Shown one piece after another: positions 42,608-59,730 of a stretch of 64,000 nt of DNA. The DNA is from Candidatus Bathyarchaeota archaeon (GTDB lineage Archaea > Thermoproteota > Bathyarchaeia > Bathyarchaeales > Bathycorpusculaceae). A program made the translations under genes and the position numbers. The notes beneath the pieces are model-generated. The model had not been told where the DNA came from and did no database searches. It saw only the letters and a program-made list of their open reading frames with translations. The stretch covers positions 832,001 through 896,000 of the forward strand of contig CAWHXY010000004.1 of NCBI GenBank assembly GCA_963833575.1, in the 5' to 3' direction. Position 1 is the first letter of the stretch, and each line of letters starts with the position of its first letter.

Positions 42608-43579
42608 TTAAGGTTTTTTCTTTTTGCCCAGCCTGTCAAGGAGTGCGCTTGTCATTATTGGCATTATTACTGTGGCGTCGCCTTCTATCATTATGCGTTT
42701 GGCTTTTTCGTTGATTTTTCCCCACGAAACGGCTTCTCTGGGGCGTGCGCCGCTGAGGCTTCCATCCCACTCGTCTGCTGTGGTTATGTAGACGACGTAG
42801 TCTAAGCCGTCTTTGAATTGGTTCCACCAAATCGTATGATGCTTGCTGATACCTCCGCCAACGATCAGGGCGCCGCTTTTCTTAGCGTCGAAAACGATGT
42901 TGTTTAGGTCGCCTTCGTCTTTTAACAGGTTAATTCTGAAGTCGTGATGGTCTTGGCTGAAGAACCAGAGTTGGTAACCTACTGATCCATCAGTTATGCC
43001 TGGTACGAAGATGGGAATGTTGTTTTTGGCTGCCCAATAAAGAATCGAGCTCTCATTGCAACAGCGTAATCCAATTTCGCGGCACAGCTCAGTGGTGGAG
43101 AGTTCCCTTTTGCCTTCCTTGTATAGTTCTTCAAGAAGCCCGAGGATTTTCTTTTCTATAATTATGCCGTAGCTGTCATTTGGGACAAGTACGTTTCCCA
43201 GGCGGTTTAGGCCTTCTTGGTGAAGTTTGGAATCGTTCATGATGAAGCTGCCTTTATAGTAGTCTTTCCAGCTGCGTGCAACGTCGTGATCAAGCGTCCC
43301 ACATGTGGTGATTACGACATCAACTAGTCTGCGTTTCACTAGTTCTTTGATAACGCCTCGTGTCCCAGTAGCCACTATGTCGGCGGTGAATGAGAGAAAC
43401 TTTACGCAGCCTTTGGCTTTTATCATGGATTCCATGATGCTGACGCCTGTTGAGAGCTTTCCTGCCGTGAAACCCCACGCCTTATCCATTTGCCCAACAA
43501 GTTTATTTACCGTCATTTTTTCAGTAAACTGATAATCTTCAACTGGTACCTTATGTGCCTCTGTTTCTTTATGCGCCAT
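42608..43579 (-). CDS. dys: Deoxyhypusine synthase (canonical archaeal type)
   Basis: TTCG.LDHD, NRLGN, GGGISKHH, DGSLSGARPREAVSWGK, GDAT. Confidence 0.92.
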   Translation of the reverse strand: MAHKETEAHKVPVEDYQFTEKMTVNKLVGQMDKAWGFTAGKLSTGVSIMESMIKAKGCVKFLSFTADIVATGTRGVIKELVKRRLVDVVITTCGTLDHDVARSWKDYYKGSFIMNDSKLHQEGLNRLGNVLVPNDSYGIIIEKKILGLLEELYKEGKRELSTTELCREIGLRCCNESSILYWAAKNNIPIFVPGITDGSVGYQLWFFSQDHHDFRINLLKDEGDLNNIVFDAKKSGALIVGGGISKHHTIWWNQFKDGLDYVVYITTADEWDGSLSGARPREAVSWGKINEKAKRIMIEGDATVIMPIMTSALLDRLGKKKKP

Positions 43580-43644: not shown

Positions 43645-44535
43645 TTATTCTGATAGGTAGGAGATGATCCGATTGTAGATGTCTTTGTCGGATGAGTCTT
43701 CGTATCCGGCGTAAATGCTTGGGTTATCGTTAACTTCTACTACAACGTAGTTGCCGTTTACTTCTTTGATGTCAACGCCGTAGAGTCCTTTTCCGACAAC
43801 GCTGCATGCTTTCAAAGCTACTTCTCTAAGTCTAGCAGGCAACTCTTTTTTGTGGAGGCTTACTGTTCTGCCCCATATCACTGTTGGTTTTCCGCGGAGT
43901 TTGGCGCCATGTTTCCATTTGCCTTTTGGAATCATGTATTTGCACACGTACAGTATGTCATTGTTTAGTACGCCGACTCTCCAGTCAAACGCTGTTGGCG
44001 TAAACTGTTGAATTGCCAAAACATCAGATTTCTTAAAGAACCGTTTCGCTACATCTCTGAAACTTGTTTCGCAAGCAGCCTTTTCTACGTAGCGTGAGAA
44101 GCTTGTATAAGGTGCTTTTATGACAACTGGTTTTCCAAGTTCGTCGAATATGTCGCTAATTTTCTTGTGGTGCAGTTCGTCTTTGTTTAGGAAAACGGTG
44201 GGTATGTGTGGAACGTTGAACTTTTCGAATAAAGCGTATTGGTGGATTTTGTTGCCGCAGATTGTTATGGATTCAGGATCATCAATGACTTTTAACCCTA
44301 GTTCCCATGCTGTTTTGGAAACCACATAGGCCGTATTCAAAGGGTCGGTTGTTGCCCTGATGAAGACAGAATCATATTTTGGGACGTCAGAGATGTTTTC
44401 GCGAAAAAGGAAACTAAATTCGCTCCCTTGTTTTTCTGCGGCTGACTTGAAGTTTTGGAGTGCGCCTTCTTCTCGGGGATCAGTAAAATTATATTTCTCA
44501 ACAAAGCATGCGATCTTAGACACCGAAGTGTTCAC
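43645..44535 (-). CDS. RimK-family ATP-grasp alpha-L-glutamate ligase
   Basis: FIRATT.P, PVVIKAP..SFS, FDWRVGVL, GLYGVDIKE, EVNDNP. Confidence 0.9.
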   Translation of the reverse strand: MNTSVSKIACFVEKYNFTDPREEGALQNFKSAAEKQGSEFSFLFRENISDVPKYDSVFIRATTDPLNTAYVVSKTAWELGLKVIDDPESITICGNKIHQYALFEKFNVPHIPTVFLNKDELHHKKISDIFDELGKPVVIKAPYTSFSRYVEKAACETSFRDVAKRFFKKSDVLAIQQFTPTAFDWRVGVLNNDILYVCKYMIPKGKWKHGAKLRGKPTVIWGRTVSLHKKELPARLREVALKACSVVGKGLYGVDIKEVNGNYVVVEVNDNPSIYAGYEDSSDKDIYNRIISYLSE

Positions 44536-45217
44536 CCTGCTCAGAAATGAGCATGACCTCTTTGGAGATCTGTTGCAAGTCTATCTCTGAAAGCTCCTCT
44601 TTGCTTACGGGTTGCAATCCACACAAATAAGCTTTATCTACTGTTTTTTGTATATGCAAATTGCAAACTGGAATCTTGAATGTTTCAAATACACGTTTTG
44701 CAATTTCCTGTGTCTGCGAATCTTGATTTGTTGTTTTCCCGAAGAATGATTTGATGGTGATAAGCTCACCTTTAAGCGGTTGGGCACAAACGGCGAATTT
44801 GTAGTTCATTCCTAGACTTTTCATGCCTCGATAAAGCGCGCTTTTATTATTGGCGATTTTGTAGCCGTCGTAAATGAATGGGTTTACTGCAAAAAGAATG
44901 ACGGGATAGCCAAGTTCAGCAGTTATTTTTCTAACGGAATCTGTGACGAGAAACGGTAAGGTTGGAACTCCAGCTCTTGCTGCTCTCAAAATTAGAATAG
45001 GAGTTCTGCTTGAATCAATAATGTTTTCACATGATGGAATTACTTGGTTGCCGAGAATTTCGGCATGCATCGAGACGTAATAGCCTGTTTTCATGTATCG
45101 GTATTCGTTGTTAATGTTGATAGTGGTTTCTTTGAGTGTGGAATCTAAAAACGTTGCGGGCTTCATTATTTGCATATTGGTTGTTAGGTCGATGTTTGAG
45201 ACGACCAACACGGTCAT
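44516..45217 (-). CDS. RimK-like ATP-grasp N-terminal-domain protein
   Basis: IN...Y.Y...GYYVS..AE..G..VIP motif; overlaps the downstream RimK gene. Confidence 0.75.
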   Translation of the reverse strand: MTVLVVSNIDLTTNMQIMKPATFLDSTLKETTININNEYRYMKTGYYVSMHAEILGNQVIPSCENIIDSSRTPILILRAARAGVPTLPFLVTDSVRKITAELGYPVILFAVNPFIYDGYKIANNKSALYRGMKSLGMNYKFAVCAQPLKGELITIKSFFGKTTNQDSQTQEIAKRVFETFKIPVCNLHIQKTVDKAYLCGLQPVSKEELSEIDLQQISKEVMLISEQGEHFGV

Positions 45218-45324
45218 GAGACACCAGGTTGCTTAAAACCCGATATTGGTGCAGTTATATTTAAGATTAACTATGACATATTTATGCCAAAAATCGAAGG
45301 TTAAAATATAAGAGGTAAAATCCT

Positions 45325-46512
45325 ACGTTTAAACCGCTTGAAGTCTTAGGGCCAGAACATGAATTTTCTCTCGTTAACCCAGAGCTAAAAGTTCTGCCAA
45401 TCTCAGACAAAATTATAAAAGACTACTGCGGAAAAATCGTCAACTTTGTTGAGTTGACGTCTTTCACATTTGGGAAAGAACTGCAAATGCATGTCATGGA
45501 GGTAAAAGCAAACTCGCCTTTCAAATCCCCTGTGGAATTTGAAGAAACAATGCAACAGGCAGTCACAACCTTAAACCAAATTGTACAGAAACGTGGCGCC
45601 AAACTTCTCGGAACTGGAATGCATCCTTTACTTAAACTAGAAGACACCGCCATCTGGCCTCATTACCACAAAAAAATCTACTGCGAATACGGCAAAATCT
45701 TCAACCTAAATCAGCATGGATGGCTAAACATACAAAGCTTTCACTTAAATCTCCCGTACCAAAAAGAACCCGACGGCGTTCAAATCCATAATCTGCTTGC
45801 TAATTTGAGTGCATATCTACCTGCTATTGCTTCTTCCTCGCCAATTTATGAATGCAAAAATGGACCCGACATCGATAACCGACTTCAATTCTACAGGGTA
45901 AACCAGAAAGAAATTCCGTCAATAACTGGCGAAGTTATCCCAGAATACGTCACTTCATTTAGCCAGTACAAACATGACGTTATCGAACGATACTCAGAGG
46001 ACTTAGCTAAATCCGGGGCAAGCAAAACCTTGCTGAATCGGGAATGGGTTAATTCAAGAGGCGTAATTTTCCGTTTTGACCGTTGTGCTCTTGAAGTACG
46101 AGTGATGGATGAGCAAGAATGCATTAAGTCTGATGTTGCTTTGAGCTGTTTTGTACGGGCTACCCTCAGAGGATTAATCGCTTTAAAGGCTGAGCTTTCT
46201 CCACATGACTTGATAGTTAAAGACTTCAACATAATAGTTAAGGAAGGATTAGACGCTCAGGTTTCAAGCTCTTACGGCAAGACAGCAAGGCAGGTTTGCC
46301 AACATTTCCTACACTTGGCTTGTGAATTCGCAAATGACGATGAAAAAAAGTATTTGTGGATTATAAAGAAAAGACTAGAAAACGGCAGCCTATCAGAAAT
46401 TGTGCGAAATCGCGTCTTGAGGCGAGCAGAAAAAACCGATTTCCACGAAGCAATCATAAATGTCTTTTCAACGCTTATTAAGTGCCTCTCCGATAATGAA
46501 CCCTACTTCTAA
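45325..46512 (+). CDS. Glutamate--cysteine ligase family 2 (GCS2/YbdK-like); start codon uncertain
   Basis: The frame extends upstream of the track ORF to (T)FKPLEVLGPEHEF. Also has KELQ.HV.E, GTGMHP, NIQSFHLNL, ASSSP, NSRG...RF.R.ALEVR..DEQEC. Confidence 0.85.
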   Translation, partial: TFKPLEVLGPEHEFSLVNPELKVLPISDKIIKDYCGKIVNFVELTSFTFGKELQMHVMEVKANSPFKSPVEFEETMQQAVTTLNQIVQKRGAKLLGTGMHPLLKLEDTAIWPHYHKKIYCEYGKIFNLNQHGWLNIQSFHLNLPYQKEPDGVQIHNLLANLSAYLPAIASSSPIYECKNGPDIDNRLQFYRVNQKEIPSITGEVIPEYVTSFSQYKHDVIERYSEDLAKSGASKTLLNREWVNSRGVIFRFDRCALEVRVMDEQECIKSDVALSCFVRATLRGLIALKAELSPHDLIVKDFNIIVKEGLDAQVSSSYGKTARQVCQHFLHLACEFANDDEKKYLWIIKKRLENGSLSEIVRNRVLRRAEKTDFHEAIINVFSTLIKCLSDNEPYF

Positions 46513-47471: not shown

Positions 47472-48230
47472 TTATCTGAAGAGGTCTTTTTCTTTGGCTC
47501 TAATAAGTTCGGTAGTTGATGCGCCCTCAGTTGTTTGGTACTTGTATCCTCGAATGATAGCAACAGGTATTCCCTCGTTGGCTTGTCCAATCACAAGTTC
47601 CGCTGCCGAAGATAATTCATCGGCAATGGCGGTTTGTTTTATTCGAAGAACGTATCCAAAGAGATCTTTTTCTCCACGTCTATCCCTAATTGGTTTAATT
47701 CCTGCAACACCAACTGCCACGTTTATTTCTCCTAAACGTAGAGGTCTTCCATGAGTATCAGAAATGATTACTGCAACGGTGGCTCCGGTTAACCGTTTTA
47801 TTCCCCGTCTTATGTTTTGTGCAGAAACGTTTGGGTTTTTTGGCAATGGTACCACGTTGCGGTCGCCTGAAACATTTGACCTGTCAATTCCAGCATTTGC
47901 ACAAATTATTCCGTTTTTAGTCTCCGTTATAATGCTGTTTTGTCCCAATCGCACTATTTCTTTAGTTTCTCTAAGAATGACCTCGACTAGAGCAGGCTCT
48001 TTGTTAGTTTCTTCTGCTAACTCCATTGCTCTCTCAGAAGGAGTCACTTTGTCAAGGTCGATAATGTTTCCTTCAGCTTTTGAAACTACCACATGAGTAA
48101 CAACTAATATGTCGTTTTCCATTAGTGGTGTACCCTGTTTTTCTGTAGCGTTTGAAATGAGCTCTGCTAAATTATCTCCATCTTTTATTAGCGGTAGATT
48201 TTCAACAGCAATTATCTTTATAATATCCAT
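47472..48230 (-). CDS. cofE: Coenzyme F420-0:L-glutamate ligase
   Basis: VVSKAEG, ICANAGIDRSN, IISDTHGRP.R.G, DLFG..L, ADEL, DLFR. Confidence 0.95.
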   Translation of the reverse strand: MDIIKIIAVENLPLIKDGDNLAELISNATEKQGTPLMENDILVVTHVVVSKAEGNIIDLDKVTPSERAMELAEETNKEPALVEVILRETKEIVRLGQNSIITETKNGIICANAGIDRSNVSGDRNVVPLPKNPNVSAQNIRRGIKRLTGATVAVIISDTHGRPLRLGEINVAVGVAGIKPIRDRRGEKDLFGYVLRIKQTAIADELSSAAELVIGQANEGIPVAIIRGYKYQTTEGASTTELIRAKEKDLFR

Positions 48231-48396: not shown

Positions 48397-51063
48397 ATGG
48401 GCATCGAGAAACTTGAGAATTTATTCAATCCTAAACGAATAGCAGTTATCGGTGCAAGCGACAGAGAAGGTTCCATAGGCGCGAAAATTTTAGGAAATCT
48501 AATTGGAGTCGGTTATAAAGGCGCGGTTTTCCCCGTAAATGCATTTAGAGACACTGTACACGGAATAACCGCTTATCCAAGCATTTGCAAAATCCATCGT
48601 TTAATCGATCTAGCGATAATTGCCGTTCCAGCCCATACTGTGCCACAGATCGTTGAAGAATGTGGTGAAGCTGGCGTTTCTGGAATCATAATCTGCTCCG
48701 CCGGTTTTAGAGAAGTTGGTGAAGAAGGCGTTCTACTCGAAAGGAAAATCCTTGAAAGCCAAAAGAAATACGGAATGCGGATTATTGGTCCCAACAGTTT
48801 CGGAATCATCAGACCCAAAGCAAATCTTTATGCTACATTTGCAGATGAAAAAGCAGTTTCTGGAAAAATCGCTTTCATATCCCAAAGTGGGGCTTTGTGT
48901 GCTTCGGCGCTTGATTGGGCGTCTGAAGCTCAAGTTGGATTCAGCGCCGTTGTGTCTACCGGTTCAATGCTTGATGTTGATTTAGGTGACTTAATAGATT
49001 ATTTTGGAGCTGATGCTCAAACTAAAAGTATTGTTTTGTATGTTGAGTCAATTAAGAACGCCAGGAAATTTATGAGTGCTGCACGTGGCTTTGCCAGAAC
49101 CAAACCTATTGTGGTTGTTAAAGCTGGACGTTTTCAGGAGAGTGTCATTCCAACCCTGTCTCATAGTGGTTCTTTAGGCGGGGAAGATGCAGTTTATGAC
49201 TCAGCTTTTAGACGTGCCGGAGTAGTCAGAGTCGAAAGCATGATTGATCTGTTTAATTGTGCCGAAGCATTAGCTATGCAGCCAAATCCTACAGGACCTA
49301 ATTTGACCATTATTACCAATGCAGGAGGCCCAGGTATTATGGCTACTGACCAGCTTATCGACAAAGGTGGAAAGCTATCGCCGCTAAGTCAGGAAACTAT
49401 ACAATCTTTAAAAAATATACTGCCTTCCTACTGTAACACAACAAATCCAATTGATATTTTTGAGGAAGCAACGGCGGCAAGGTTCAAGGATGTTATGAAC
49501 GTTTGTTTGAAAGATCCAAACAGTAATGGTTTTCTTTTGATCTATGCTCCTCAAGCAGCATCAGATCCGTCGGCCTTAGCGAATGCAGTTGTAGAATTGT
49601 CGCACCAAACGCAAAAGCCAATACTCACCTGTTTAATGGGCCAAGACTCGAGATGTGGTGAAGCTCGTAGGTTTCTTCAAAAAAGCGGTATTCCAAATTT
49701 TCCGACTCCTGAACAAGCTGTGTCAACTTTCATGTATATGTACCGTTACACCCAAGATTTGGAACTTCTTTATCAAACACCTGAAGAGATTTCTGAAGAG
49801 CCAGCAAATTCAAAAGTACTAAAATCCATTTTAAAGCAAGCTTATCAACAAGGGCACCAGGTCCTTGGGTTAGTTGACTCTCTCAGATTTTTAGAAGCCT
49901 ACAAAATACCCGCCATCAAGACTTTGGTAGCGAAAACCTCAGATGAAGCTGAAGTTTTAGCTTCTAAAATGGGGTTTCCTGTAGTAATGAAAGTCTTGTC
50001 TCCGCAGGTTACTCATAAATCCAGAATCGCAGGGGTTATCCTCAACATATGCTCTAATGAGGCCGTTCATAATTGCTTTGATGAATTATCTGAAAAAGTG
50101 AAGCAACTAAGTAATAGCACTGAATTTGAAGGCGTTGCAATACAGCCTATGATCTGCAAAAAAAGTTACGAATTGTTAATCGGATCCAAAAAAGATCTTC
50201 AATTCGGTTCTGTCGTAATTTTTGGTAGGGGTGGAACAGATGCCGAGTTACTTAAGGACGTTAGTATAGGTTTCCCACCTTTGAATCAGGTGCTTGCAAG
50301 AAGACTAATTGAGGATACTAATGTCTACAAGTATGCGGCGTTGTCAGATTTTCCATTAAACGTTAAAGCAATTGAAGAAACCTTGGTGAAGTTTTCTCAG
50401 CTAATTATTGATTTTCCAGAAGTCAAAGAAATAGACATAAACCCTTTGATTGTGGATAAAAATAGCGTTGTTGCGGTAGATGCACGCATCGTTATGGATA
50501 TGGATCGTATAACTCAACGAGTTAGGTCTTATGAACATCTTGTCATCGCTCCTTATCCAAGTAAGTATAAATCTAGTTGGAAAGCCAAAAATGGAGTGGT
50601 ACTTCAGTTGCGGGCAATAAAACCTGAAGATGAAGATAGATTCAATGAACTTTTCAAATCTCTTTCTCCACAAACAATGCATTTCCGCTTCTTTGAGATA
50701 ATAAAAGAGCTTTCTCATGAAACATTGACACGATACTGTAATTTAGATTATGATAGAGAAATTGCTGTAGTAGCCGAAATTCCAGAGAGCAGACAAATCA
50801 TTGGCGTAGCCCGATTAATAGTAGATGCCACTGGAAAAAGCGGCGAATACGCTGTCTTAATTGGAGACGACTGGCAAGGCTTTGGGGTAGGTGGCAAACT
50901 GATGGATTATCTAATAAAAATAGCTAAGGACAAGAATTTAGAGAAAATTTATGGTTACGTCATGGCGGATAACACTAAAATGGTAAACCTTTGCAATAGA
51001 CTTGGATTCGTAACTGGAACTCTTGATTCTGAGACCTTAATTACATCCTTAATTATATCGTAA
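48397..51063 (+). CDS. ADP-forming acyl-CoA synthetase-like alpha+beta fusion with C-terminal GNAT domain (Pat-type)
   Basis: IAVIGAS, GPNSFG, SQSGA, SHSGSL, TNAGGPG, HKS..GV.L, EIDINPL, VDAR; GNAT motif WQGFGVG. Confidence 0.9.
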   Translation: MGIEKLENLFNPKRIAVIGASDREGSIGAKILGNLIGVGYKGAVFPVNAFRDTVHGITAYPSICKIHRLIDLAIIAVPAHTVPQIVEECGEAGVSGIIICSAGFREVGEEGVLLERKILESQKKYGMRIIGPNSFGIIRPKANLYATFADEKAVSGKIAFISQSGALCASALDWASEAQVGFSAVVSTGSMLDVDLGDLIDYFGADAQTKSIVLYVESIKNARKFMSAARGFARTKPIVVVKAGRFQESVIPTLSHSGSLGGEDAVYDSAFRRAGVVRVESMIDLFNCAEALAMQPNPTGPNLTIITNAGGPGIMATDQLIDKGGKLSPLSQETIQSLKNILPSYCNTTNPIDIFEEATAARFKDVMNVCLKDPNSNGFLLIYAPQAASDPSALANAVVELSHQTQKPILTCLMGQDSRCGEARRFLQKSGIPNFPTPEQAVSTFMYMYRYTQDLELLYQTPEEISEEPANSKVLKSILKQAYQQGHQVLGLVDSLRFLEAYKIPAIKTLVAKTSDEAEVLASKMGFPVVMKVLSPQVTHKSRIAGVILNICSNEAVHNCFDELSEKVKQLSNSTEFEGVAIQPMICKKSYELLIGSKKDLQFGSVVIFGRGGTDAELLKDVSIGFPPLNQVLARRLIEDTNVYKYAALSDFPLNVKAIEETLVKFSQLIIDFPEVKEIDINPLIVDKNSVVAVDARIVMDMDRITQRVRSYEHLVIAPYPSKYKSSWKAKNGVVLQLRAIKPEDEDRFNELFKSLSPQTMHFRFFEIIKELSHETLTRYCNLDYDREIAVVAEIPESRQIIGVARLIVDATGKSGEYAVLIGDDWQGFGVGGKLMDYLIKIAKDKNLEKIYGYVMADNTKMVNLCNRLGFVTGTLDSETLITSLIIS

Positions 51064-51405: not shown

Positions 51406-52401
51406 TTGGCGCTCAAGTTCGGAATCGAATTCGTTCCAAAAGACCCCTACTGGAAACTAGCAGCCTACGCTATACAAGCAGAAAACAGCGGTTTTGATAA
51501 CCTCTGGATAACAGACCACTATGGCAACCGTAATGTCTACGTGACCCTTGCAGCCGCAGCCATATATACAAACAAAATTGTCTTCGGCACAGGCGTAACC
51601 AACCCATGGATGGTTAACCCAGTCATAACCGCACAAGCCATCGCAACACTAGACGAGCTAGCGCCGGGAAGAGTTGTGCTCGGCATGGGTGCAGGAGACA
51701 AAACCACTCTTGAAGCAGTTGGCATAGATATGGGCAAACCCTTAGCGGCAGTAAAAGAAGCAATAGACATGTTCCGCAAACTAACAAACGGCGAAAAAGT
51801 AGCTTTCCAAGGCGAAGTCTTCAAAGCTGCCGGCGCCAAATTCAACTTTAAACCAGCACACAAGATTCCCGTTTACATCGGCGCTCAAGGGCCAAAAATG
51901 TTAGAGCTAGCCGGAAAAATCGGTGATGGTGTCCTCATCAACGCAAGTCACCCAAGCGATATAGAATTCGCTGTTAAAATGGCAAATGAAGGCATAAAAC
52001 AAGCAGGCAAATCACCAAGCGATGTTGACATAACAGCTTACACATCATTCTCAGTTAACGAAGATCCGAAAAAAGCAGTAAAAGCTGCAACGCCAGTCGT
52101 AGCTTTCATAGTCGCAGGCAGTCCACCGCCAGTACTTGAAAAACACAAAATTGATGTTGCCAAAGCAGACGAAATACGCGCAGGTCTCAAAGCAGGAGAT
52201 TTTCCCAAGGCATTAGCAGCTGTAACACCGGAAATGCTTGACGCCTTCTCAATATGTGGTACACCCGACATGTGCATTGAAAAAATCGCAGCACTACAAA
52301 AAATCGGCATAGGTCAATTCGTCGTAGGATCTCCAATCGGCACTAACGTCAAGAACTCAATTGACCTCATCGGCAGCAAAATCATCCCCCACTTTAAATA
52401 A
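51406..52401 (+). CDS. mer: F420-dependent methylene-H4MPT reductase
   Basis: FGIEFVP, WITDHY.NR, GVTNP, G.GAGD, YIGAQGPKML, DGVLINASHP, FVVGSPIG. Confidence 0.93.
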   Translation: MALKFGIEFVPKDPYWKLAAYAIQAENSGFDNLWITDHYGNRNVYVTLAAAAIYTNKIVFGTGVTNPWMVNPVITAQAIATLDELAPGRVVLGMGAGDKTTLEAVGIDMGKPLAAVKEAIDMFRKLTNGEKVAFQGEVFKAAGAKFNFKPAHKIPVYIGAQGPKMLELAGKIGDGVLINASHPSDIEFAVKMANEGIKQAGKSPSDVDITAYTSFSVNEDPKKAVKAATPVVAFIVAGSPPPVLEKHKIDVAKADEIRAGLKAGDFPKALAAVTPEMLDAFSICGTPDMCIEKIAALQKIGIGQFVVGSPIGTNVKNSIDLIGSKIIPHFK

Positions 52402-52508: not shown

Positions 52509-53147
52509 ATGGTTGTTTACGCGATAGTTCCAGTAAAAAAAATTGGCGTTTCCAAAAGACGTCTCTCTCAAAGCCTCAGCCTGCACGAACGCAAATCTTT
52601 AACCGTAGCCATGCTGGAGGACGTTTTAAAAGCACTACAAACATCGGTTGTCAACAAGGTTTTGGTCGTTAGCAACGACCCCAAGGTTCGCCCCATAGCC
52701 GAACGGTTTGGCGCCGACTTTTTTTCTCCGTTTCGCAAGGGCCTGAACTCCGCTATTGAAGAAGCGTGGGCTTGGTGTATAAGAAATAAAGCTGATTCAG
52801 TTTTGGTTTTGCCCGCTGACATTCCACTATTGGCCTCAAAGGATATTGATTGCATAGTCCAATTAGGTTCAGGTAACCGCCATGTGGTTTTAGCTCCATC
52901 CAAAGATTGGGGCACCAACGCTTTTTACCAGTGCCCACCACATATTGTTCACGCAAATTTTGGAAACGACAGCTTCATAAAACACACAAAAGAAGCGCAT
53001 AGCAAAGGGGCTTGCGTCAAATATTACTATTCACAGGGGGTCGGTTTGGATGTTGATTCTACCGATGATCTCCAAGTTTTGCTTAAGGTTAAGAATGAAA
53101 CGTTAAGTAGACAAGTTTTGCAGGGTTTCAAAATAACAAAAAGTTGA
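52509..53147 (+). CDS. cofC: 2-phospho-L-lactate/PEP guanylyltransferase
   Basis: IVPVK....KRRL, AMLEDV, GLN, PADIP, GTNA, DVD..DDL. Confidence 0.92.
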   Translation: MVVYAIVPVKKIGVSKRRLSQSLSLHERKSLTVAMLEDVLKALQTSVVNKVLVVSNDPKVRPIAERFGADFFSPFRKGLNSAIEEAWAWCIRNKADSVLVLPADIPLLASKDIDCIVQLGSGNRHVVLAPSKDWGTNAFYQCPPHIVHANFGNDSFIKHTKEAHSKGACVKYYYSQGVGLDVDSTDDLQVLLKVKNETLSRQVLQGFKITKS

Positions 53148-53185: not shown

Positions 53186-53857
53186 TTAAGCTGGTGGAAC
53201 ACCGACTAATTGGATGCCTGCGCCTTTGATCTTGTAGCGTATGTTTATAGCGATTAGGGCTGCTGTCATGGTTTCAACGACTACTGCGTTCTCGATTGCG
53301 CCTGCATCGTAGGCGTCTATGCCGATTTTCTTTATCATGCCTATAATCATGTCGCGTGTTTCTCTATTTGCGCCGACGACTAGAACGTTTGTTTCTATTT
53401 TCTCGTCAAATTTTTCTAGTTGCTCTGGGCTTATGTTCTGGAATGCATCAACTACTTTTGCTTCAGGACCTAGGAAATTTTGTATTTCCTGGGCGATTGA
53501 GCCTGCAGGGTTGATTCTTGCTCGGCTTTTCTTTTCAGCATCAAGTGATGAGGCTATGTTGATTATGATTTTTCCTGGTGTGACTGGTTTGATGTCTTCA
53601 AGTATGGGTTTCATTCCGTCGTATGGAATAGCGAGGAGTACAATGTCGGCTTTGGCTGTTGCGTCGCGATTGGTGGAGCCTTCAGCTGTAAGAACGTTGA
53701 ATTCGGTGTTGAGATTATAAGCCGCGTTTATGGCCTTTTCAGAAGAACGAGATCCGATAATTGTGCGAAAACCTGCTCTAGCAAATCTAGCGGCAATCGC
53801 AAATCCTTCTTTACCCGTTCCACCGATTATAGCTATTGAGGATTTATTTTGCGACAT
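53186..53857 (-). CDS. npdG: F420H2:NADP+ oxidoreductase (copy 1)
   Basis: IIGGTGKEG..A.R, IGSRS.EKA, GS.A, AFQNIS, DAG...NA..VE..T..LI.IN. Confidence 0.9.
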   Translation of the reverse strand: MSQNKSSIAIIGGTGKEGFAIAARFARAGFRTIIGSRSSEKAINAAYNLNTEFNVLTAEGSTNRDATAKADIVLLAIPYDGMKPILEDIKPVTPGKIIINIASSLDAEKKSRARINPAGSIAQEIQNFLGPEAKVVDAFQNISPEQLEKFDEKIETNVLVVGANRETRDMIIGMIKKIGIDAYDAGAIENAVVVETMTAALIAINIRYKIKGAGIQLVGVPPA

Positions 53858-54009: not shown

Positions 54010-54345
54010 CTACGTGTATGCTTTTTTTGTTTGTTGTGTGATTATTTCTCTTATTAATCGGCACAGATGAATTATTTTTGGGCTAGCAATCTGATAATAA
54101 ACTACTGCTCCGTCTCTCCTGACCGTTATGATTTTTTGTTGCCTCATGAGAGCTAAATGCTGCGAGAGATTGCTATGACTTACACTGACTATTTCCATTA
54201 GGTCCGTCATAGTTTTTTCACCTCCTTCCAGAAAATGTAGAATCATAAGACGTGTTGGGTGCGCCATGTTTCTTAGCAACTGAGCTTGCATTTCGCAGAG
54301 CATGATGTTAGATTTGATTGCCGCTTGCCTCTGCTCTTTCTCCAT
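54010..54345 (-). CDS. ArsR/SmtB-family transcriptional regulator
   Basis: MAHPTRL.IL..L, NLSQHLA.MR, RRDG..VYY. ATG start chosen at 54345. Confidence 0.92.
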   Translation of the reverse strand: MEKEQRQAAIKSNIMLCEMQAQLLRNMAHPTRLMILHFLEGGEKTMTDLMEIVSVSHSNLSQHLALMRQQKIITVRRDGAVVYYQIASPKIIHLCRLIREIITQQTKKAYT

Positions 54346-54474
54346 ATTCTCCTGCTCCTCCACCTTAAGACAATTTACAAGCAAGTGTATAGATTAAGTT
54401 GCAATATAACAACATTAACACGGGTTCATATGATTTCCTCCAATTTAACTAATATAGAATAAGTAGTAAGAGAG

Positions 54475-54504
54475 CTAGCTATGCTTGTACTAGCTGTGCT
54501 TGTA
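54475..54504. repeat. Tandem 15-bp direct repeat
   Basis: CTAGCTATGCTTGTA CTAGCTGTGCTTGTA (14/15 identical). Confidence 0.6.
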
Positions 54505-54821
54505 TCTGTTATGAAGTAAAGAGTGTAGACGCCTTTCCTATTGGCAGCCCTTGCTTGGGACAATGAAAAGCCAATTTGAAAACTACTCCATTTTGGTTGT
54601 GCGCGCTGGCTGTCCAAAATTAAAATATCTTATAACTATAAATGCGGTCGGCATTTGAAGAATGAATTAGCACAAGGAAGTTGAATCCCTCGCCTTTCTG
54701 ATCAGAATAAAACTTAGCGCCATGTATGCGGTTCTCTCTTCAGGCATTTGAGATAGCGATACGATTACAAATTTTATATCACTATGTTTGCTCCTTTCTC
54801 GATTAGACGTTGTGATATTTT

Positions 54822-55007
54822 ATGGCTGCCAAACCAGATTCTATTGACTTGTTAAACCAAACGGTAGAACGCGAGTTCCACGTAGCAGTACAGTATTTCC
54901 TTCAGCACGATAAAATCGAGAAAGTCCGTTTTTTTATGTATTTTATTCAAAAAGAATCATTTTTTTCTGCAAGTTCCATTGTTAAAATGCCCGTTAGCAA
55001 GGTTTAG
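54822..55007 (+). pseudogene. N-terminal fragment of a ferritin/bacterioferritin-like gene
   Basis: DLLNQTVEREFHVAVQYFLQH resembles ferritin-like helix A (LN..L..E.....QY..H). Similarity is lost after about 35 aa. Confidence 0.5.
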
Positions 55008-55077
55008 GAAAAATACTTAAAGCCGAAAGCACCCAATTAAATGCAAATATAACCGAACTCAGTGTTGAGGTTGATTT

Positions 55078-55530
55078 GTGTCAGTAGAGAAAATTGATAG
55101 AATCATCGATAAATATGCTGACCAAAAAGGTGTTTTGATTCAACTTTTATTAGATGTACAGAAAGAGTTCAATTGGATACCGAAAGAAGCCGTTATCAGA
55201 ATAAATCAGAGATTGAAAATTCCAGTAAGCGAAATCTACCGAGTTGCAAGCTTCTACACTTCATTAAGCCTCAAACCGCGAGGACGCCATCTAATACGCG
55301 TGTGCCTCGGTACCGCCTGCTACGTACGTGGAGGCCCAAGAATTCTTGATTCTGTAGAGCGATGTTTCACCGTAAAGCCTGGCGAAACCACAGCTGACGG
55401 TCGTTTCAGCTTAGAAACAGTAAGTTGTTTAGGTGCATGCGATTTGGGACCCGTTATTGAATTGGATGGAAAATATCATGGAAGGCTCACTCCGACAAAT
55501 CTCGGGGAGATTCTTTCCAAGTATAAATAG
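55078..55530 (+). CDS. NuoE/HydC-like [2Fe-2S] subunit
   Basis: VASFY, CLGTAC, CLGAC.LGP. Confidence 0.93.
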   Translation: MSVEKIDRIIDKYADQKGVLIQLLLDVQKEFNWIPKEAVIRINQRLKIPVSEIYRVASFYTSLSLKPRGRHLIRVCLGTACYVRGGPRILDSVERCFTVKPGETTADGRFSLETVSCLGACDLGPVIELDGKYHGRLTPTNLGEILSKYK

Positions 55531-55557
55531 GTAAAAAGAGCACGGAGGAAAAAAAAG

Positions 55558-57480
55558 ATGCCCTTCTTAACTTCCCCTGAGGATTTAGAACAGCTCCGAC
55601 GAGTTCTACTAGCCATAAGCGACTACAAAAAGCCCACAGTCATATTATGTGGAGCTACAGGTTGCGATACTCTTGGAGCAAAAGAAGTCGTTAAAGCTTT
55701 TAAAGAAGAATTTGAGAAACGAAACTTAGAAGGCAAAGTAGACATCAAAGAAACCGGCTGTTTGGGATCGTGTGAAAAAGGACCACGTGTCACCATACAG
55801 CCTGAAGAAATCGCTTATTTCCGTGTGAAAGCGTCTGATGTCGCTGAAATAGTTGAAAGGACCCTGCTTAACAAAGAAATAATTGAGCGGCTGCTCTACA
55901 TTGATCCGACCACGGGCGTGGTAGCTCGATATCTTTACGAAGTGCCTTTTTACAAATATCAAAATAGGCTTCTCCTAGACAGAAATGCAAAGCTTGACCC
56001 AAAAAACATAGAAGACTACATTAAATTAAACGGTTACCAAGCTTTAGCTAAAGCTCTATTTCATATGACCCCAGACCAAGTGATTGAAGAAATCAAAAAA
56101 TCTGGGCTCCGAGGACGAGGGGGAGGGGGATTCCCAACTTTTCAGAAGTGGGACTCAGCTCGCAAAGCAAATGGCACCCCCAAGTACGTAATCGTCAACG
56201 GCAACGAGAGCAACCCTGGAACGTTCATGAGCCGCATTTTAATGGAAGGAAACCCGAACGTTATCCTTGAAGGCCTAATAATTGGAGGGTACACAATCGG
56301 TGCACATGAAGGCTTTATCTACTTACGTCAAGACTACCCGCTTGCCTTAGAAAACATGCAAGCTGCCATCGATCAAGCAACGGCTTTTGGGCTGCTCGGA
56401 AAGAACATTCTCGGATCAGGCTTCGACTTTGAAGTTAAGATCTACCGAAGTGCAGGAGGCTTCGTTTCGGGAGAATCAACCGCCCTCATGAAGGCGATTG
56501 AAGGCAAAGCAGGTGAACCAAGGCCTAAGTACATACGTAGCTCAGAAAAGGGGCTTTGGGGTAAACCTACAGTTCTCAACAACGTAGAAACATGGGCAAA
56601 CATTCCATTAATTATCAACAACGGCGCAGAATGGTTCTCAGGAATAGGTTTAGCAGGAAACAAAGGTACCAAAATCTTTGTTTTGTCAGGAAACGCTATC
56701 AACACTGGATTGATTGAGGTTCCGCTAGGCGTAACCATGAGAGACATAGTCTTCAAAATTGGCGGCGGCATACGAAATGGAAAAAAGTTCAAAGCGGTTC
56801 AAATAGGTGGACCCGCAGGTGGCATGATTCCTGAGCAATACCTTGATGTCCCAATAGCCTTTGACGAACTCGAAAAATTGGGTGCCAAGATGGGTTCAGG
56901 TGGATTAATCGTAATGGATAATGAAACCTGTATGGTTGATGCAGCGCGTTACTTTGTTAACTTCCTCTCCAAAGAGTCCTGTGGCAAATGTGTACCCTGT
57001 AGAGAGGGTCTGCTACAGGCAAACGAAATACTTACTAGGATCGTGTCGGGAAAAGGTGAAGAAAAAGACATCGAGAAACTTCGGCAAATCGCCGAGACAT
57101 CTAGCCTTGCTTCTCTTTGTGCTTTGGGAGCGACATCTGCTAATCCAATGCTTACATCTCTTCGGTATTTTGCGTACGAATACGAAGAGCACATAAACGG
57201 GAAAAGATGCCCCGCGCTGTCTTGCAAGCCTCTGATAAACTTCTACATTGACCCATTGAAATGCATGGCCTGCACGCTCTGCTCAAGAAATTGCCCAGTG
57301 AAAGCCATCGATGGCGCGCCAGGCAAGATCCATATCATTGACCAAAATAAATGTGTTAAATGCGGTACTTGTTTTGACCAATGCAAGTTCAAAGCGGTTA
57401 CAAAGATATCTGGAGAACCCGTTCCTCCGCCAATTCCCGAGGAGCAAAGGATAAAAAAGCCAGTTGGACGGGCGAACTAA
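55558..57480 (+). CDS. NuoF/HydB-like FMN/NAD(P)H subunit with N-terminal [2Fe-2S] and C-terminal 2x[4Fe-4S]
   Basis: CGATGC/GCLGSC, GLRGRGGGGFP, NNVET, QIGGP.GG, ESCGKCVPCREG, SLCALG, HINGKRCPALSC, two CxxCxxCxxxC. Confidence 0.93.
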   Translation: MPFLTSPEDLEQLRRVLLAISDYKKPTVILCGATGCDTLGAKEVVKAFKEEFEKRNLEGKVDIKETGCLGSCEKGPRVTIQPEEIAYFRVKASDVAEIVERTLLNKEIIERLLYIDPTTGVVARYLYEVPFYKYQNRLLLDRNAKLDPKNIEDYIKLNGYQALAKALFHMTPDQVIEEIKKSGLRGRGGGGFPTFQKWDSARKANGTPKYVIVNGNESNPGTFMSRILMEGNPNVILEGLIIGGYTIGAHEGFIYLRQDYPLALENMQAAIDQATAFGLLGKNILGSGFDFEVKIYRSAGGFVSGESTALMKAIEGKAGEPRPKYIRSSEKGLWGKPTVLNNVETWANIPLIINNGAEWFSGIGLAGNKGTKIFVLSGNAINTGLIEVPLGVTMRDIVFKIGGGIRNGKKFKAVQIGGPAGGMIPEQYLDVPIAFDELEKLGAKMGSGGLIVMDNETCMVDAARYFVNFLSKESCGKCVPCREGLLQANEILTRIVSGKGEEKDIEKLRQIAETSSLASLCALGATSANPMLTSLRYFAYEYEEHINGKRCPALSCKPLINFYIDPLKCMACTLCSRNCPVKAIDGAPGKIHIIDQNKCVKCGTCFDQCKFKAVTKISGEPVPPPIPEEQRIKKPVGRAN

Positions 57481-57481
57481 A

Positions 57482-58954
57482 ATGACGACAAATAATGCGG
57501 AACCGGCGGTTAAAGAAATCACTTTAAAAATAGATAACCAAGAAGTCAAGGCAAAAGAGGGCGAAACCATCCTCGACGTTGCCAAAAGGCTGAACATAAA
57601 CATACCTACACTATGCTTTGTGAAGGCGCTCTCTCCGTTTGGCGCTTGCCGCCTGTGCTCAGTGGAGATCGCCGAAAAAAATGGAAAAAGCCGCATGGTG
57701 ACTAGCTGCAATTATCCTGTTCAAGAAGGCTTGGTCGTTTTTACGAGATCCGAAAAAACCATAAAGATTCGCAAAATGTTGCTTGAACTGCTGCTGGCGC
57801 GTTGCCCCAAGGTTGCGAAAATTCAAGAGTTAGCCCTTGAATATGGCGTTAAAACGACGGGTTTTTGGGTAGCCGATGAAAATGAAGACTGTATCTTGTG
57901 TGGTTTATGCACTCGTGTATGTGACGAACTTGTAGGCGTAAACGCAATAGATTTTGCCAACCGTGGGCTTGAACGTGAAGTCACTGCTCCGTATCACGAG
58001 TTTTCCAATGACTGCATAGGTTGTGGTGCCTGCGCTGCCATATGCCCAACTAAATCAAAAAGAACAAGGATAACCACGTACCCGGTATTAGAGGAAGACG
58101 CTAAGAAAATTAACGAGCAGTTCCTCAAAGGCACTTGCGACGAGAATATAGGCGTCTATCAAGAAATAATCGGAGCTAAAAGCTTGGTTGCCGGCCAAGA
58201 CGGCGGCATGGCCACAGCACTTTTGATCTCAGGCATGCAAAAGGGCATGTTTGATTCAGCAATCGTTGTCCAACGAAAAGATGGCTATCAAGCGGAAGCA
58301 GTCGTAGCAGAAAACATTGATGATATTATGAAAGCCAAGGGCACAAAGTATCTTCGTGTAAAGATGCTTTCTTTGCTGACTGATTTGGTGGCCAAGGGAA
58401 AGCGTAAAATTGCCTTGGTAGGCACGCCCTGTGAAATCCGTGCGGCACGAAAGATTCAGCAAGCACTTCTTGAGGCGCACCCTGATTTGCAGTTAACACT
58501 TGTGGGCCTGTTCTGCTTCGAAGCATTCGAATACGACAAACTCAAGGAGGCAGCACAGCAGCTTATGGGCGTCGACATTGACACCGTCGAAAAAACACAG
58601 ATAACCAAAGGCAAATTTATTGCAACCGTCAACGGAACCGACCACACAATACCCGTTAAAGAAATGAGCGCTGCACAGGCGCATGGCTGCAACTTCTGCG
58701 ATGACCTCACTAACAAATTCGCTGACATCTCTGTAGGTTCAGTCGGAACTCCAGAGGGCTTCTCAACCATCATAGTCAGGTCCGACATCGGAGCTAAGCT
58801 GCTAGAAAACGTTGAGTTCACTAAAATAGACGTCAACAAAGACGAACTTACGAAGCTGTCAGGATTCAAAAAGGGTCGGGCGAAAAAGAACTTCGCCAAG
58901 ATTATGCCGCCTGAACCTCCAATTCAAGTAGCACCAAAACTCGCAGTTCAATAA
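57482..58954 (+). CDS. Fusion of HydA/NuoG-type N-terminal Fe-S domains and an F420-binding FrhB domain
   Basis: IPTLC...GACRLC...TSC [2Fe-2S]; CILCGLC, CIGCGAC; then the FrhB motifs GQDGG..TALL, GTKY, VGTPC, GLFCFE.F, GC.FC.D, ADISVGS. Confidence 0.9.
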   Translation: MTTNNAEPAVKEITLKIDNQEVKAKEGETILDVAKRLNINIPTLCFVKALSPFGACRLCSVEIAEKNGKSRMVTSCNYPVQEGLVVFTRSEKTIKIRKMLLELLLARCPKVAKIQELALEYGVKTTGFWVADENEDCILCGLCTRVCDELVGVNAIDFANRGLEREVTAPYHEFSNDCIGCGACAAICPTKSKRTRITTYPVLEEDAKKINEQFLKGTCDENIGVYQEIIGAKSLVAGQDGGMATALLISGMQKGMFDSAIVVQRKDGYQAEAVVAENIDDIMKAKGTKYLRVKMLSLLTDLVAKGKRKIALVGTPCEIRAARKIQQALLEAHPDLQLTLVGLFCFEAFEYDKLKEAAQQLMGVDIDTVEKTQITKGKFIATVNGTDHTIPVKEMSAAQAHGCNFCDDLTNKFADISVGSVGTPEGFSTIIVRSDIGAKLLENVEFTKIDVNKDELTKLSGFKKGRAKKNFAKIMPPEPPIQVAPKLAVQ

Positions 58955-58992
58955 TTGCTTTTTCTTCCCTTACTTTCGCTAAACCCACGGGG

Positions 58993-59730
58993 TTATGTGC
59001 ATCCGTTGTATGCAGAGGGAATCCACGGTACTACTCGAATTGACGGTTCTTTAAGCTCGTTAAGGGTGGCTACGGTTAGCAGGAGAGGAACCATGGCTTC
59101 AATCAGTCTGGAGTTTTCTAGAGGGCCTGCTTTCAGTGGTCTCAAGTTAGGTATTTCGCAGATCAGCTTAGCCACTTCAGTGACTGACCAGTCATCGTTG
59201 CCTGCTGCAAAAACATCGATATTTAGTGATTTCTCTGTGTCACTCAAGTACACCGCGGGAATAGTGTGAAACGAGGACACTACGCTGGCTGGTCTTACAA
59301 TTTCCTGAATTAGCTCTGCAACTGATTTCTGTTCTGCTGCTTCAGCCTCAAAGCTTCCCGCGGTAGAGTTTGAAATTGGTATGTGCCTAAAGATACCTTG
59401 ACTTCTTTTCATTGAGACTATTGTTGAAATGACTATTTGATTTTGATGAAAATATGGTTTCAGTTCTTGCATTGCTTGAAGAGTAGCGTCGGCTGGAATG
59501 GTAACGATTACCGTTTCAGACTTTTCTACCGCATCCTTAGCAGAAGCACCATTAATGCTTCCCAACATGTTACTCTTATGAAAGTCACGGGCGTCAGCTT
59601 CAAGCCTTTTCGCGGTTTGAACTGCTTTTTCATAGTTCCTTGAAGTAATGAGCACATCGTGGTTTTTTGCCATCCTAAAGGCAAGACCTCTGCCCATTCT
59701 ACCCACTCCACCAATAATGCCTATTTTCAA
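58993..59730 (-). CDS. npdG: F420H2:NADP+ oxidoreductase family (copy 2, divergent)
   Basis: IGIIGG.GRMG.GLA.R, ITSR..EKA, SVAE, FHTIPA, AGPLENSRLIE...PLLL. Confidence 0.8.
   Translation of the reverse strand: MKIGIIGGVGRMGRGLAFRMAKNHDVLITSRNYEKAVQTAKRLEADARDFHKSNMLGSINGASAKDAVEKSETVIVTIPADATLQAMQELKPYFHQNQIVISTIVSMKRSQGIFRHIPISNSTAGSFEAEAAEQKSVAELIQEIVRPASVVSSFHTIPAVYLSDTEKSLNIDVFAAGNDDWSVTEVAKLICEIPNLRPLKAGPLENSRLIEAMVPLLLTVATLNELKEPSIRVVPWIPSAYNGCT

Follow-up and report, generated by a model that had tools for sequence, protein, structure and literature searches.

An F420-Bfu-type operon beside F420 and C1 genes of a Bathyarchaeia genome, a candidate link between coenzyme F420, NAD(H) and ferredoxin

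How do Bathyarchaeia supply the F420-dependent methylene-tetrahydromethanopterin (H4MPT) reductase Mer with reduced coenzyme F420 (F420H2), or where does Mer deliver it? For the acetogens of Bathy-6, the available parts of Loh et al. 2021 state that the source of F420H2 for Mer "remains unclear" and note a lone FrhB homologue. The locus studied here consists of three adjoining genes, bfuC, bfuB and bfuA (bfuCBA), in a stretch of 64,000 nucleotides (the window) from a Candidatus Bathyarchaeota archaeon (assembly GCA_963833575.1, contig CAWHXY010000004.1, positions 832,001 to 896,000), and in the genus of this archaeon the "lone FrhB" belongs, as A subunit, to a predicted Bfu-type trimer encoded beside Mer, a concrete candidate source or sink of F420H2. 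With this operon, the "F420-Bfu" type gains a member from a new host lineage, in an informative gene neighbourhood; Schut et al. 2022 (PMC9304861) had predicted the type from two sequences in Methanosaetaceae (Type 1, BfuB clade 45) and described it as uncharacterised, which bears out the guess of an initial annotation of the window that F420-linked members had been predicted before. We consider it reasonably likely (a probability of about 0.6) that bfuCBA encodes a soluble Type 1 Bfu heterotrimer of the HydABC type with coenzyme F420 as its third substrate, and the three-gene enzyme probably exchanges electrons among F420, NAD(H) and ferredoxin.

The initial annotation, made from the sequence and its open reading frames (ORFs), had placed a HydC-like, a HydB-like and an A subunit gene at 55078..58954, and the three ORFs lie exactly there on one strand (Table 1), with Pfam assignments that agree. 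For bfuA we favour the second start in the table, one base past the TAA stop of bfuB, because the product of 490 amino acids then equals in length P0004, a homologue 96% identical to it. According to Schut et al. 2022, the invariant BfuBC core of the family comprises FMN, five clusters in B (B1 to B5) and one in C, of which B2 to B5 are missing from the non-bifurcating homologues treated in the available parts of that study. All sites of this core, six Fe-S sites and the FMN domain, are found in bfuC and bfuB. The ligands of cluster C1 in BfuC (C76, C81, C117, C121) are invariant in 28 of 28 homologues. BfuB combines part of PF01257 (residues 25-101), the FMN/NADH domain PF01512 (179-350, E = 2e-40), PF10589 (461-545, E = 5.8e-29) and two Fer4 matches (563-613), and the N-terminal [2Fe-2S] site, the TCMV...H.x.CP...C ligand set and the two C-terminal [4Fe-4S] sites that had been read from its sequence are all present. 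The ligands of B5 at the N-terminus (C31, C36, C68, C72) are kept in 27 to 28 of the 28 homologues, and those of B1 (C475, C478, C481, C521), of B2 (TC458MV, H545, C551-P, C556) and of the C-terminal 2x[4Fe-4S] domain B3/B4 (eight cysteines, C569-C579 and C599-C609) in all 28. In a residue-by-residue alignment, C458, H545, C551 and C556 correspond to C438, H525, C531 and C536 of the NiFe-HydB of Acetomicrobium mobile (7t2r_B), the B2 ligand numbers of the latter being those given by Schut et al. 2022.

When BfuB was compared with all sequences of the PDB, eight chains matched over approximately its full length with 590-719 bits, namely the NiFe hydrogenase subunit B of 7t2r (719 bits), WorB of the bifurcating tungsten aldehyde oxidoreductase (9mqx_B, 698), HydB of 8a6t (671), 7q4v (657) and 7p5h (626), NfnB (9n5u, 618), 9bov_B (613) and 8oh5_B (590). 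The first six of these belong to enzymes whose titles call them electron-bifurcating. FdsB (6vw7) and NuoF chains reach 344-358 bits over residues ~38-546 only, so that BfuB is at least 230 bits closer to the bifurcating chains. The genome of the window (G000; 2.75 Mb on 8 contigs, 94.3% complete) holds a second NuoF homologue on contig 1 (G000:C1:19335-30191), in a NuoE-NuoF-HoxU cluster adjoining two NiFe large-subunit genes (Hox-like), and this Hox-type paralogue served as root of a BfuB tree of 68 rows (IQ-TREE quick search, LG+G4, SH-aLRT support only, B matches shorter than 520 amino acids left out). One clade of 32 rows (support 100) contains the B of the window and takes in all 28 rows with an FrhB-bearing A subunit; within it, sub-clades of Bathyarchaeia (15 rows, support 99), of an ANME-1 group (anaerobic methanotrophic archaea; nine rows, 100) and of Methanotrichaceae (two rows, 99) are recovered. 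The other four rows are two Dehalococcoidales, a Methanophagales locus with a different A (L053) and a locus with its A cut by the contig end (L045). At L053, a locus of a metagenome-assembled genome (MAG), the A ORF of 623 amino acids matches bfuA in its N-terminal 184 residues only and has a different C-terminal part. The company of Methanotrichaceae F420-type and Dehalococcoidales rows, and WorB as the second-best PDB match, can be set beside the tree of 1558 sequences of Schut et al. 2022, where clade 45 includes F420, Wor, Bam and Mbh sub-clades. By its sequence, BfuB thus groups with the bifurcating BfuB/HydB proteins and not with NuoF/FdsB-type diaphorases; the opposite grouping, which the initial annotation had named as speaking against its proposal, is found neither in the scores nor in the tree. 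The NAD-site motif of BfuB is G-E-S in 28 of 28 homologues and likewise in WorB, and G-E-E in the HydB of A. mobile. The second Glu of this motif contributes to the choice of NADH over NADPH in complex I. WorB is described as binding NAD in the WorABCSL paper (PMC12318220).

The A subunit is what sets the operon apart. BfuA begins with a [2Fe-2S] domain (PF13510, residues 17-96) and a 2x[4Fe-4S] domain (140-197), followed by FrhB_N (PF04422, 243-305, E = 4.6e-15) and FrhB_C (PF04432, 314-451, E = 4.7e-39), the latter being the sole PF04432 match in the genome. Among the 18 Pfam families matched there is no hydrogenase H-cluster, molybdopterin or NiFe domain, and the same search gave no PF10588 (A3-type) match, so that the protein lacks A3, as WorA does. 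The domain search with hidden Markov models therefore agrees with the earlier description of an A subunit that has the relay and a complete FrhB domain (GTPC, GLFC, CxxC) and no H-cluster, Mo/W or NiFe part. Of the NCBIfam models, those for HoxU-like proteins and for the N-terminus of group-A6 HydA match at residues 19-216, those for FrhB and FpoF at 222-475. The ligands of the A1 [2Fe-2S] cluster (C51, C62, C65, C82), of the A2/A4 2x[4Fe-4S] domain (C143-C153, C184-C194) and of the FrhB [4Fe-4S] cluster (C323 in VGTPC323, C351 in GLFC351, C409-x-x-C412) are invariant in 29 of 29 homologues (17 ligand cysteines in all). The N-terminal part (21-196) matches WorA (9mqx_A) with E = 3.4e-38, and residues 183-478 match F420-dependent sulfite reductase Fsr (E = 2.3e-41) and Frh beta subunits (1.2e-38 to 2.6e-34); by their Foldseek titles, the further matches 8riu_B and 8rja_E are the F420-reducing carbon monoxide dehydrogenase (CODH) and formylmethanofuran dehydrogenase (Fwd) of Ca. 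Ethanoperedens. HCAR, a ferredoxin-dependent enzyme of the FrhB family, is far weaker than the F420 enzymes (E = 7e-9). An AlphaFold2 model of the bfuA product, built from an alignment of eight rows, has a mean pLDDT of 67 and values below 50 at residues 134-221; in Foldseek its twelve best matches are F420-reactive enzymes and HCAR comes at rank 13, in the same order as by sequence. The model supports the FrhB fold, not the packing of the ferredoxin domain against it. The FrhB half is thus nearest to F420-reactive enzymes, and binding of F420 and FAD is predicted for it. In Fsr, electrons leaving the FrhB-type [4Fe-4S] cluster are taken on by a 2x[4Fe-4S] ferredoxin domain at the N-terminus, according to the available parts of the Fsr paper, and bfuA 183-477 aligns to Fsr 14-323 with its parts in identical order. 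Because of this shared order and the relay described for Fsr, we infer by analogy that the A2/A4 domain may serve both as BfuA relay and as FrhB-side relay.

Full-length fused A subunits were found in species-representative genomes of Bathyarchaeota/Bathyarchaeia (53-64% identity), Methanophagales/ANME-1 and other Halobacteriota MAGs (52-57%), Methanotrichaceae/Methanothrix (48-49%) and "uncultured Halobacteria" MAGs (39-42%). C and B directly adjoin A in 28 of 32 loci (L016-L047), in the order C-B-A or, at L027-L029, A-C-B, and the remaining four (L020, L033, L041, L044) are cut by contig ends. ORF clustering over these 32 loci found only C, B, A and antisense shadow ORFs conserved; a conserved partner gene can be rejected for Hdr, Fpo and ferredoxin, of which none travels with the module. 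Among metagenomic proteins, 1428 of the 7999 scored are homologues of bfuA at E up to 1e-3. The 120 homologues listed are 62-96% identical, apparently share the domain marks and include several from sources named Bathyarchaeota. After clustering at 50%, among the best 150 representatives only P0124 (64%) and P0126 (42%) cover both halves of bfuA in one stretch, which marks the fusion as a narrow family. Contigs 92-99% identical to parts of bfuB, bfuA and fno-1 in four metatranscriptome runs from four studies are at most a weak hint of expression, as they stem from relatives, none covers two genes and RNA libraries can contain DNA; gaps in this coverage carry no meaning.

By homology to solved BfuABC complexes, the three products would assemble into a trimer in which F420H2 would donate a hydride to the FAD in the FrhB half of BfuA, and single electrons would travel from the FrhB [4Fe-4S] cluster via A4, A2, the A1 [2Fe-2S] cluster and B1 to the FMN of BfuB. 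The BfuBC core would then split the four mid-potential electrons of two F420H2, of which two would reduce NAD+ at the FMN and the other two would leave at low potential via C1 and the C-terminal B3/B4 clusters to ferredoxin, as proposals for the family have it. The reaction should be reversible, with confurcation forming two F420H2 from NADH and reduced ferredoxin. From the potentials in Table 1 of Schut et al. 2022 (F420, -360 mV; NADH, about -280 mV; ferredoxin, about -500 mV), the mean of NADH and ferredoxin is -390 mV, so that the reaction would run near equilibrium with F420H2 formation slightly favoured. If the H4MPT Wood-Ljungdahl pathway is used reductively (for acetogenesis), Mer would receive F420H2 made with reduced ferredoxin and NADH, the latter for instance a product of the Hox-type hydrogenase encoded on contig 1; in the oxidative mode, F420H2 from Mer would regenerate both NADH and reduced ferredoxin.

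Several findings weigh against this reading of bfuCBA, and we take them up here and with the alternatives that they touch. Matches to the fused A (E up to 1e-100 over residues ~3-489) were sought in a class-wide sample of 121 Bathyarchaeia genomes, each with a completeness of 90% or more, and were found in only four, including that of the window; the module, kept in Bathyarchaeia, ANME-1 and Methanotrichaceae, is thus rare in Bathyarchaeia. Mer is above its cut-off in 37 of the 121, of which 34 have no fused A, and one genome with a fused A (G123, 92% complete) is without a detected Mer, the other three having one. As a genomic association, the link to Mer of the earlier proposal therefore holds for G000 and G038, where the two genes are close neighbours, and does not extend to most Mer-bearing members of the class. 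Within the genus of the window, Mer and the fused A occur together in G000 and G038, and neither occurs in G084, G090, G111, G117 and G135. In the literature, of which few subscription journals were covered, we found neither a biochemical study nor activity data for any F420-Bfu, nor a description of one in Bathyarchaeia, in line with the earlier statement that no characterised member was known.

The alternative that fares best, though we regard it as unlikely, is a non-bifurcating NAD(P)H:F420 or ferredoxin:F420 oxidoreductase in which the extra clusters of BfuB and BfuC would be a storage device or regulatory relic. The standard potentials of NAD and F420 in Schut et al. 2022 are nearly equal, so that simple exchange would be feasible and bifurcation is not required thermodynamically. 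The B2 site is also less telling than it seems. Its fifth position, C476 in the NiFe-HydB 7t2r_B and Thr in FeFe enzymes according to Schut et al. 2022, is V496 here and Val in 23, Ile in two, Thr in two and Ser in one of the 28 homologues; as the 2025 WorABCSL paper (PMC12318220) describes B2 of the FeFe, Nfn and Wor enzymes as a mononuclear Zn site, a Cys3His set without a fifth ligand is the ordinary case. The B2 His is absent from non-bifurcating homologues as described in the available parts of Schut et al. 2022; the Hox-type NuoF paralogue of the window's genome (555 amino acids), which keeps the N-terminal [2Fe-2S] site and lacks the C-terminal 2x[4Fe-4S] domain, nonetheless has Cys, His, Cys and Cys at the aligned B2 positions. 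B2 ligands can thus persist without B3/B4, the motif alone is no marker of a bifurcating enzyme, and the ligand set is, on sequence grounds, necessary and not sufficient for the bifurcating type. What speaks against simple exchange is the retention of B2 to B5 and C1 as a whole across three archaeal lineages, when B2 to B5 are missing from the non-bifurcating homologues mentioned above, and the bit-score distance of BfuB from NuoF and FdsB. The two fno genes that flank the operon cut both ways: they already offer another route, from NADPH, to F420H2, and as small enzymes they already serve the simple pyridine-nucleotide exchange that this alternative would assign to bfuCBA.

Less probable still is an FrhB domain that does not use F420 and would instead act on another acceptor, as HCAR acts on a chlorophyll intermediate, or provide a second flavin site for another cofactor. 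BfuA remains below the NCBIfam cut-offs of the FrhB models PRK09325 (197.4 bits vs 269) and TIGR03289 (170.2 vs 331.5) and of the FpoF model NF040616 (159.6 vs 475), which places it on a separate branch of the family, neither FrhB nor FpoF proper, and HCAR is among its structural matches. The genome gave no match for the Fo synthase CofG and a best CofH match of 27.7 bits against a cut-off of 374, and CofH was found in none of 31 genomes of the same family, one of them 100% complete, so that the supply of F420 would depend on uptake of Fo. With CofC, CofD and CofE intact, F420 could be made from Fo, and a lineage that has these three and no detected Fo synthase may depend on external Fo. The best matches of bfuA by sequence and the twelve best by fold are all F420-reactive, HCAR is weaker by 30 orders of magnitude in sequence searches, and the operon is embedded among genes for Mer, CofC, CofE and two Fno, all of which argue for F420 as the substrate. 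That the trimer is instead the missing electron-input (N-like) module of a membrane-bound Fpo/Hfo-like complex, docked and coupled to ion translocation, is highly improbable: C, B and the N-terminal part of A are homologous to NuoE, NuoF and NuoG and the FrhB part to FpoF, a NuoH homologue adjoins a NuoD-like NiFe-family ORF on contig 7, and Fpo/Hfo-like complexes without FpoF/NuoEFG are described in these lineages (Loh et al. 2021; the 2025 Methanothrix paper), but the surroundings of the operon, in the window as at the 32 related loci, contain no membrane-complex gene, bfuA lacks the NuoG C-terminal domain and the A3/N5-type cluster in the Pfam search, and BfuB retains the ferredoxin-facing B3/B4 domain, for which a docked N-module would have no need.

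With an F420-linked, probably bifurcating Bfu enzyme as the preferred reading, the closest known counterpart is the F420-Bfu of Schut et al. 2022, which has the same three subunits; BfuB of the Methanotrichaceae loci L042 and L043 is 57-60% identical to that of the window and stands in the same strongly supported clade. There, in Methanosaetaceae, a biosynthetic supply of F420H2 was proposed, whereas the operon described here stands in Bathyarchaeia beside Mer, CofC, CofE and two Fno. Among ANME archaea, the available text of Chadwick et al. 2022 (PMC9012536) describes an FrhB8/"NuoF-Trx" cluster in which an FrhB paralogue is clustered with a divergent NuoF and a thioredoxin-like gene, and nine loci of Methanophagales/ANME-1 type carry the C-B-A module with an A 52-57% identical to bfuA; we infer, from the description alone, that the FrhB8 cluster is this module. 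WorABCSL of A. mobile (9MQX, PMC12318220), for which bifurcation to NAD and ferredoxin is demonstrated, resembles the predicted enzyme in lacking A3, in the route A4-A2-A1 and in the "GES" NAD-site motif, and it provides the closest solved N-terminal domain of BfuA and the second-best B chain. It differs in its third substrate, an aldehyde handled by the separate WorSL, and the end of WorA is formed by a zinc finger and an adaptor helix; in bfuA the catalytic FrhB domain follows by direct fusion. Nfn-Bfu (NfnABC, 9N5U) and FeFe/NiFe-HydABC(SL) (7P5H, 8A6T, 7Q4V, 7T2R) share the BfuBC core, with 618-719 bits over the full length of B, and Nfn-Bfu is likewise of Type 1 with a hydride-carrier flavin domain fused to A (Schut et al. 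2022), but the catalytic parts of their A subunits are an NfnB-like NADPH site, an H-cluster or NiFe subunits. NiFe-HydB further has a [2Fe-2S] cluster at B2 with Cys in the fifth position in place of the Val found here. The known FrhB modules (Frh 9R51, 6QGR, 4OMF; Fsr 7NP8; CODH/Fwd 8RIU, 8RJA; FpoF) share the FrhB fold with FAD and [4Fe-4S], in Fsr and FpoF also preceded by a 2x[4Fe-4S] ferredoxin domain, and are a precedent for other redox enzymes gaining F420 reactivity through an attached FrhB, but in none of them is it combined with a flavin core of the NuoEF type.

A first characterisation of an F420-Bfu would add a new third substrate to the Bfu family, and the module offers a testable answer to a question raised in the literature for some Bathyarchaeia, ANME-1 and Methanothrix. 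Its weight is limited in that the prediction had been published before and that only four of the 121 sampled Bathyarchaeia genomes gave the module. For Methanothrix harundinacea, the available parts of a 2025 paper report high expression of the single frhB under direct interspecies electron transfer, model it with HdrABC, assign the supply of F420H2 to HdrABC-FrhB and discuss an earlier Fpo-FrhB proposal. More tentatively, and with considerable doubt, F420-Bfu and Fno could be viewed as one hub that would perform the Nfn reaction in two steps via an F420 shuttle (2 NADPH + NAD+ + oxidised ferredoxin <-> 2 NADP+ + NADH + reduced ferredoxin), with the ferredoxin domain, linker and FrhB as a portable F420 cassette of which a 55%-identical copy is fused to an RnfD-like membrane protein in relatives. 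If so, all four soluble redox carriers would be tied together in an archaeon apparently unable to make the F420 head group. The protein in question has 716-722 amino acids and consists of an RnfD/NqrB-like membrane domain (PF03116), a 2x[4Fe-4S] domain and FrhB (L101:7784-9940 on the reverse strand, which is on G038:C10, and also G132:C133 and P0125). Its ferredoxin-linker-FrhB part is 55% identical to bfuA 143-476, which makes the protein the closest paralogue. Within 8 kb there is no further Rnf gene, and the fusion protein is present in two of the 121 class genomes, both with a fused BfuA; judged from its domains it may be a membrane-bound F420 enzyme.

Neighbours of bfuCBA at distances of up to 8 kb are mer, cofC, cofE and two fno genes, each above its NCBIfam cut-off (Table 1), and the mer product is likely a consumer or producer of F420H2. 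The ArsR gene is divergent from bfuC and separated from it by a gene-free spacer of 693 bases (54385-55077) without an Rfam match at E up to 0.1 and without direct or inverted repeats of at least 12 bases; its product is a possible, putative regulator of bfuCBA. An ORF of 104 amino acids abutting bfuA (58955-59269, forward strand) was considered as an extra subunit and rejected as a shadow ORF, since it has no family match and is antisense to fno-2.

Table 1. The bfuCBA operon and neighbouring genes in the window; scores are given in bits vs the NCBIfam cut-off.
Gene and predicted product	Coordinates	Strand	Basis
cofE, F420-0:gamma-glutamyl ligase	47472..48230	-	TIGR01916 299.5 bits vs 180.65
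mer, F420-dependent methylene-H4MPT reductase	51406..52401	+	TIGR03555 444 bits vs 348.7; NF002619 450 vs 276
cofC, 2-phospho-L-lactate guanylyltransferase (F420 tail synthesis)	52509..53147	+	TIGR03552 153 bits vs 105
fno-1, NADPH-dependent F420 reductase	53186..53857	-	TIGR01915 167.9 bits vs 149.8
ArsR/SmtB-family regulator	54010..54384	-	NF033788 76.5 bits vs 55
bfuC, NuoE/HydC-like thioredoxin-like [2Fe-2S] subunit, 150 aa	55078..55530	+	PF01257 full length, E 2.5e-49
bfuB, NuoF/HydB-like FMN/NAD(H) subunit, 640 aa	55558..57480	+	Pfam; best PDB chains 7t2r_B, 9mqx_B
bfuA, [2Fe-2S] + 2x[4Fe-4S] + FrhB domain	57464..58954 (likelier start ATG 57482)	+	Pfam, NCBIfam and PDB matches
fno-2, second NADPH-dependent F420 reductase, convergent with bfuA	58993..59730	-	TIGR01915 160.7 bits vs 149.8

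The associations of Mer and Fno with the module are real but local. G038 is colinear with the window (RimK-like ... CofE-ACD-orf94-Mer-CofC-bfuC-bfuB-bfuA), with Mer-CofC-bfuCBA contiguous and with fno-1 and the ArsR gene absent. In G132, a homologue of fno-2 (52% identical) immediately precedes bfuC in the same orientation, and another (34% identical) is found downstream of the module in the Methanothrix locus L043. Between the window and the corresponding locus L098 (G038:C29), flanking genes are 80-94% identical, CofC 47% and bfuC, bfuB and bfuA 72-77%, and in the segment 52509-58954 the window has fno-1, the ArsR gene and the 693-base spacer inserted between cofC and bfuC. The low identity of CofC and bfuCBA amid such flanks, together with the insertion, suggests that this segment was replaced or exchanged. 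The fused A match at G132:C9:18994-20433 contains one in-frame TGA, which may simply be the upstream bfuB stop, read through where the match begins.

The genome of the window also holds Mch, CdhC and CofD, the last away from the operon, while McrA and the F420-dependent Mtd were not found in its 94.3% complete assembly. This inventory fits the probably non-methanogenic H4MPT C1 pathway of the initial annotation and is similar to that of the Bathy-6 acetogens in Loh et al. 2021. Of 201 genomes of the class, 181 have FrhB_C matches, mostly in ORFs of ~350-380 amino acids that are not fused BfuA and that may be the "lone FrhB" of most Mer-bearing Bathyarchaeia.

The remaining genes of the window are archaeal housekeeping genes (MCM, GINS, RFC, primase, tRNA modification). 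RimK-like and GCS2-like genes at 43645-46512 were considered as F420 or H4MPT tail ligases and rejected, as they score far below the equivalog cut-offs (MptN, 62 vs 350 bits). Two deoxyhypusine synthase paralogues stand side by side and convergent at 41508-42572 (forward strand) and 42608-43579 (reverse strand), with PF01916 matches of E = 4.9e-89 and 1.2e-108. In the interval between cofE and mer, the ORF at 48397-51063 (forward strand, 888 amino acids) encodes an ADP-forming acyl-CoA synthetase (alpha and beta) fused to a C-terminal GNAT acetyltransferase, a fusion conserved in G038 with 84% identity.

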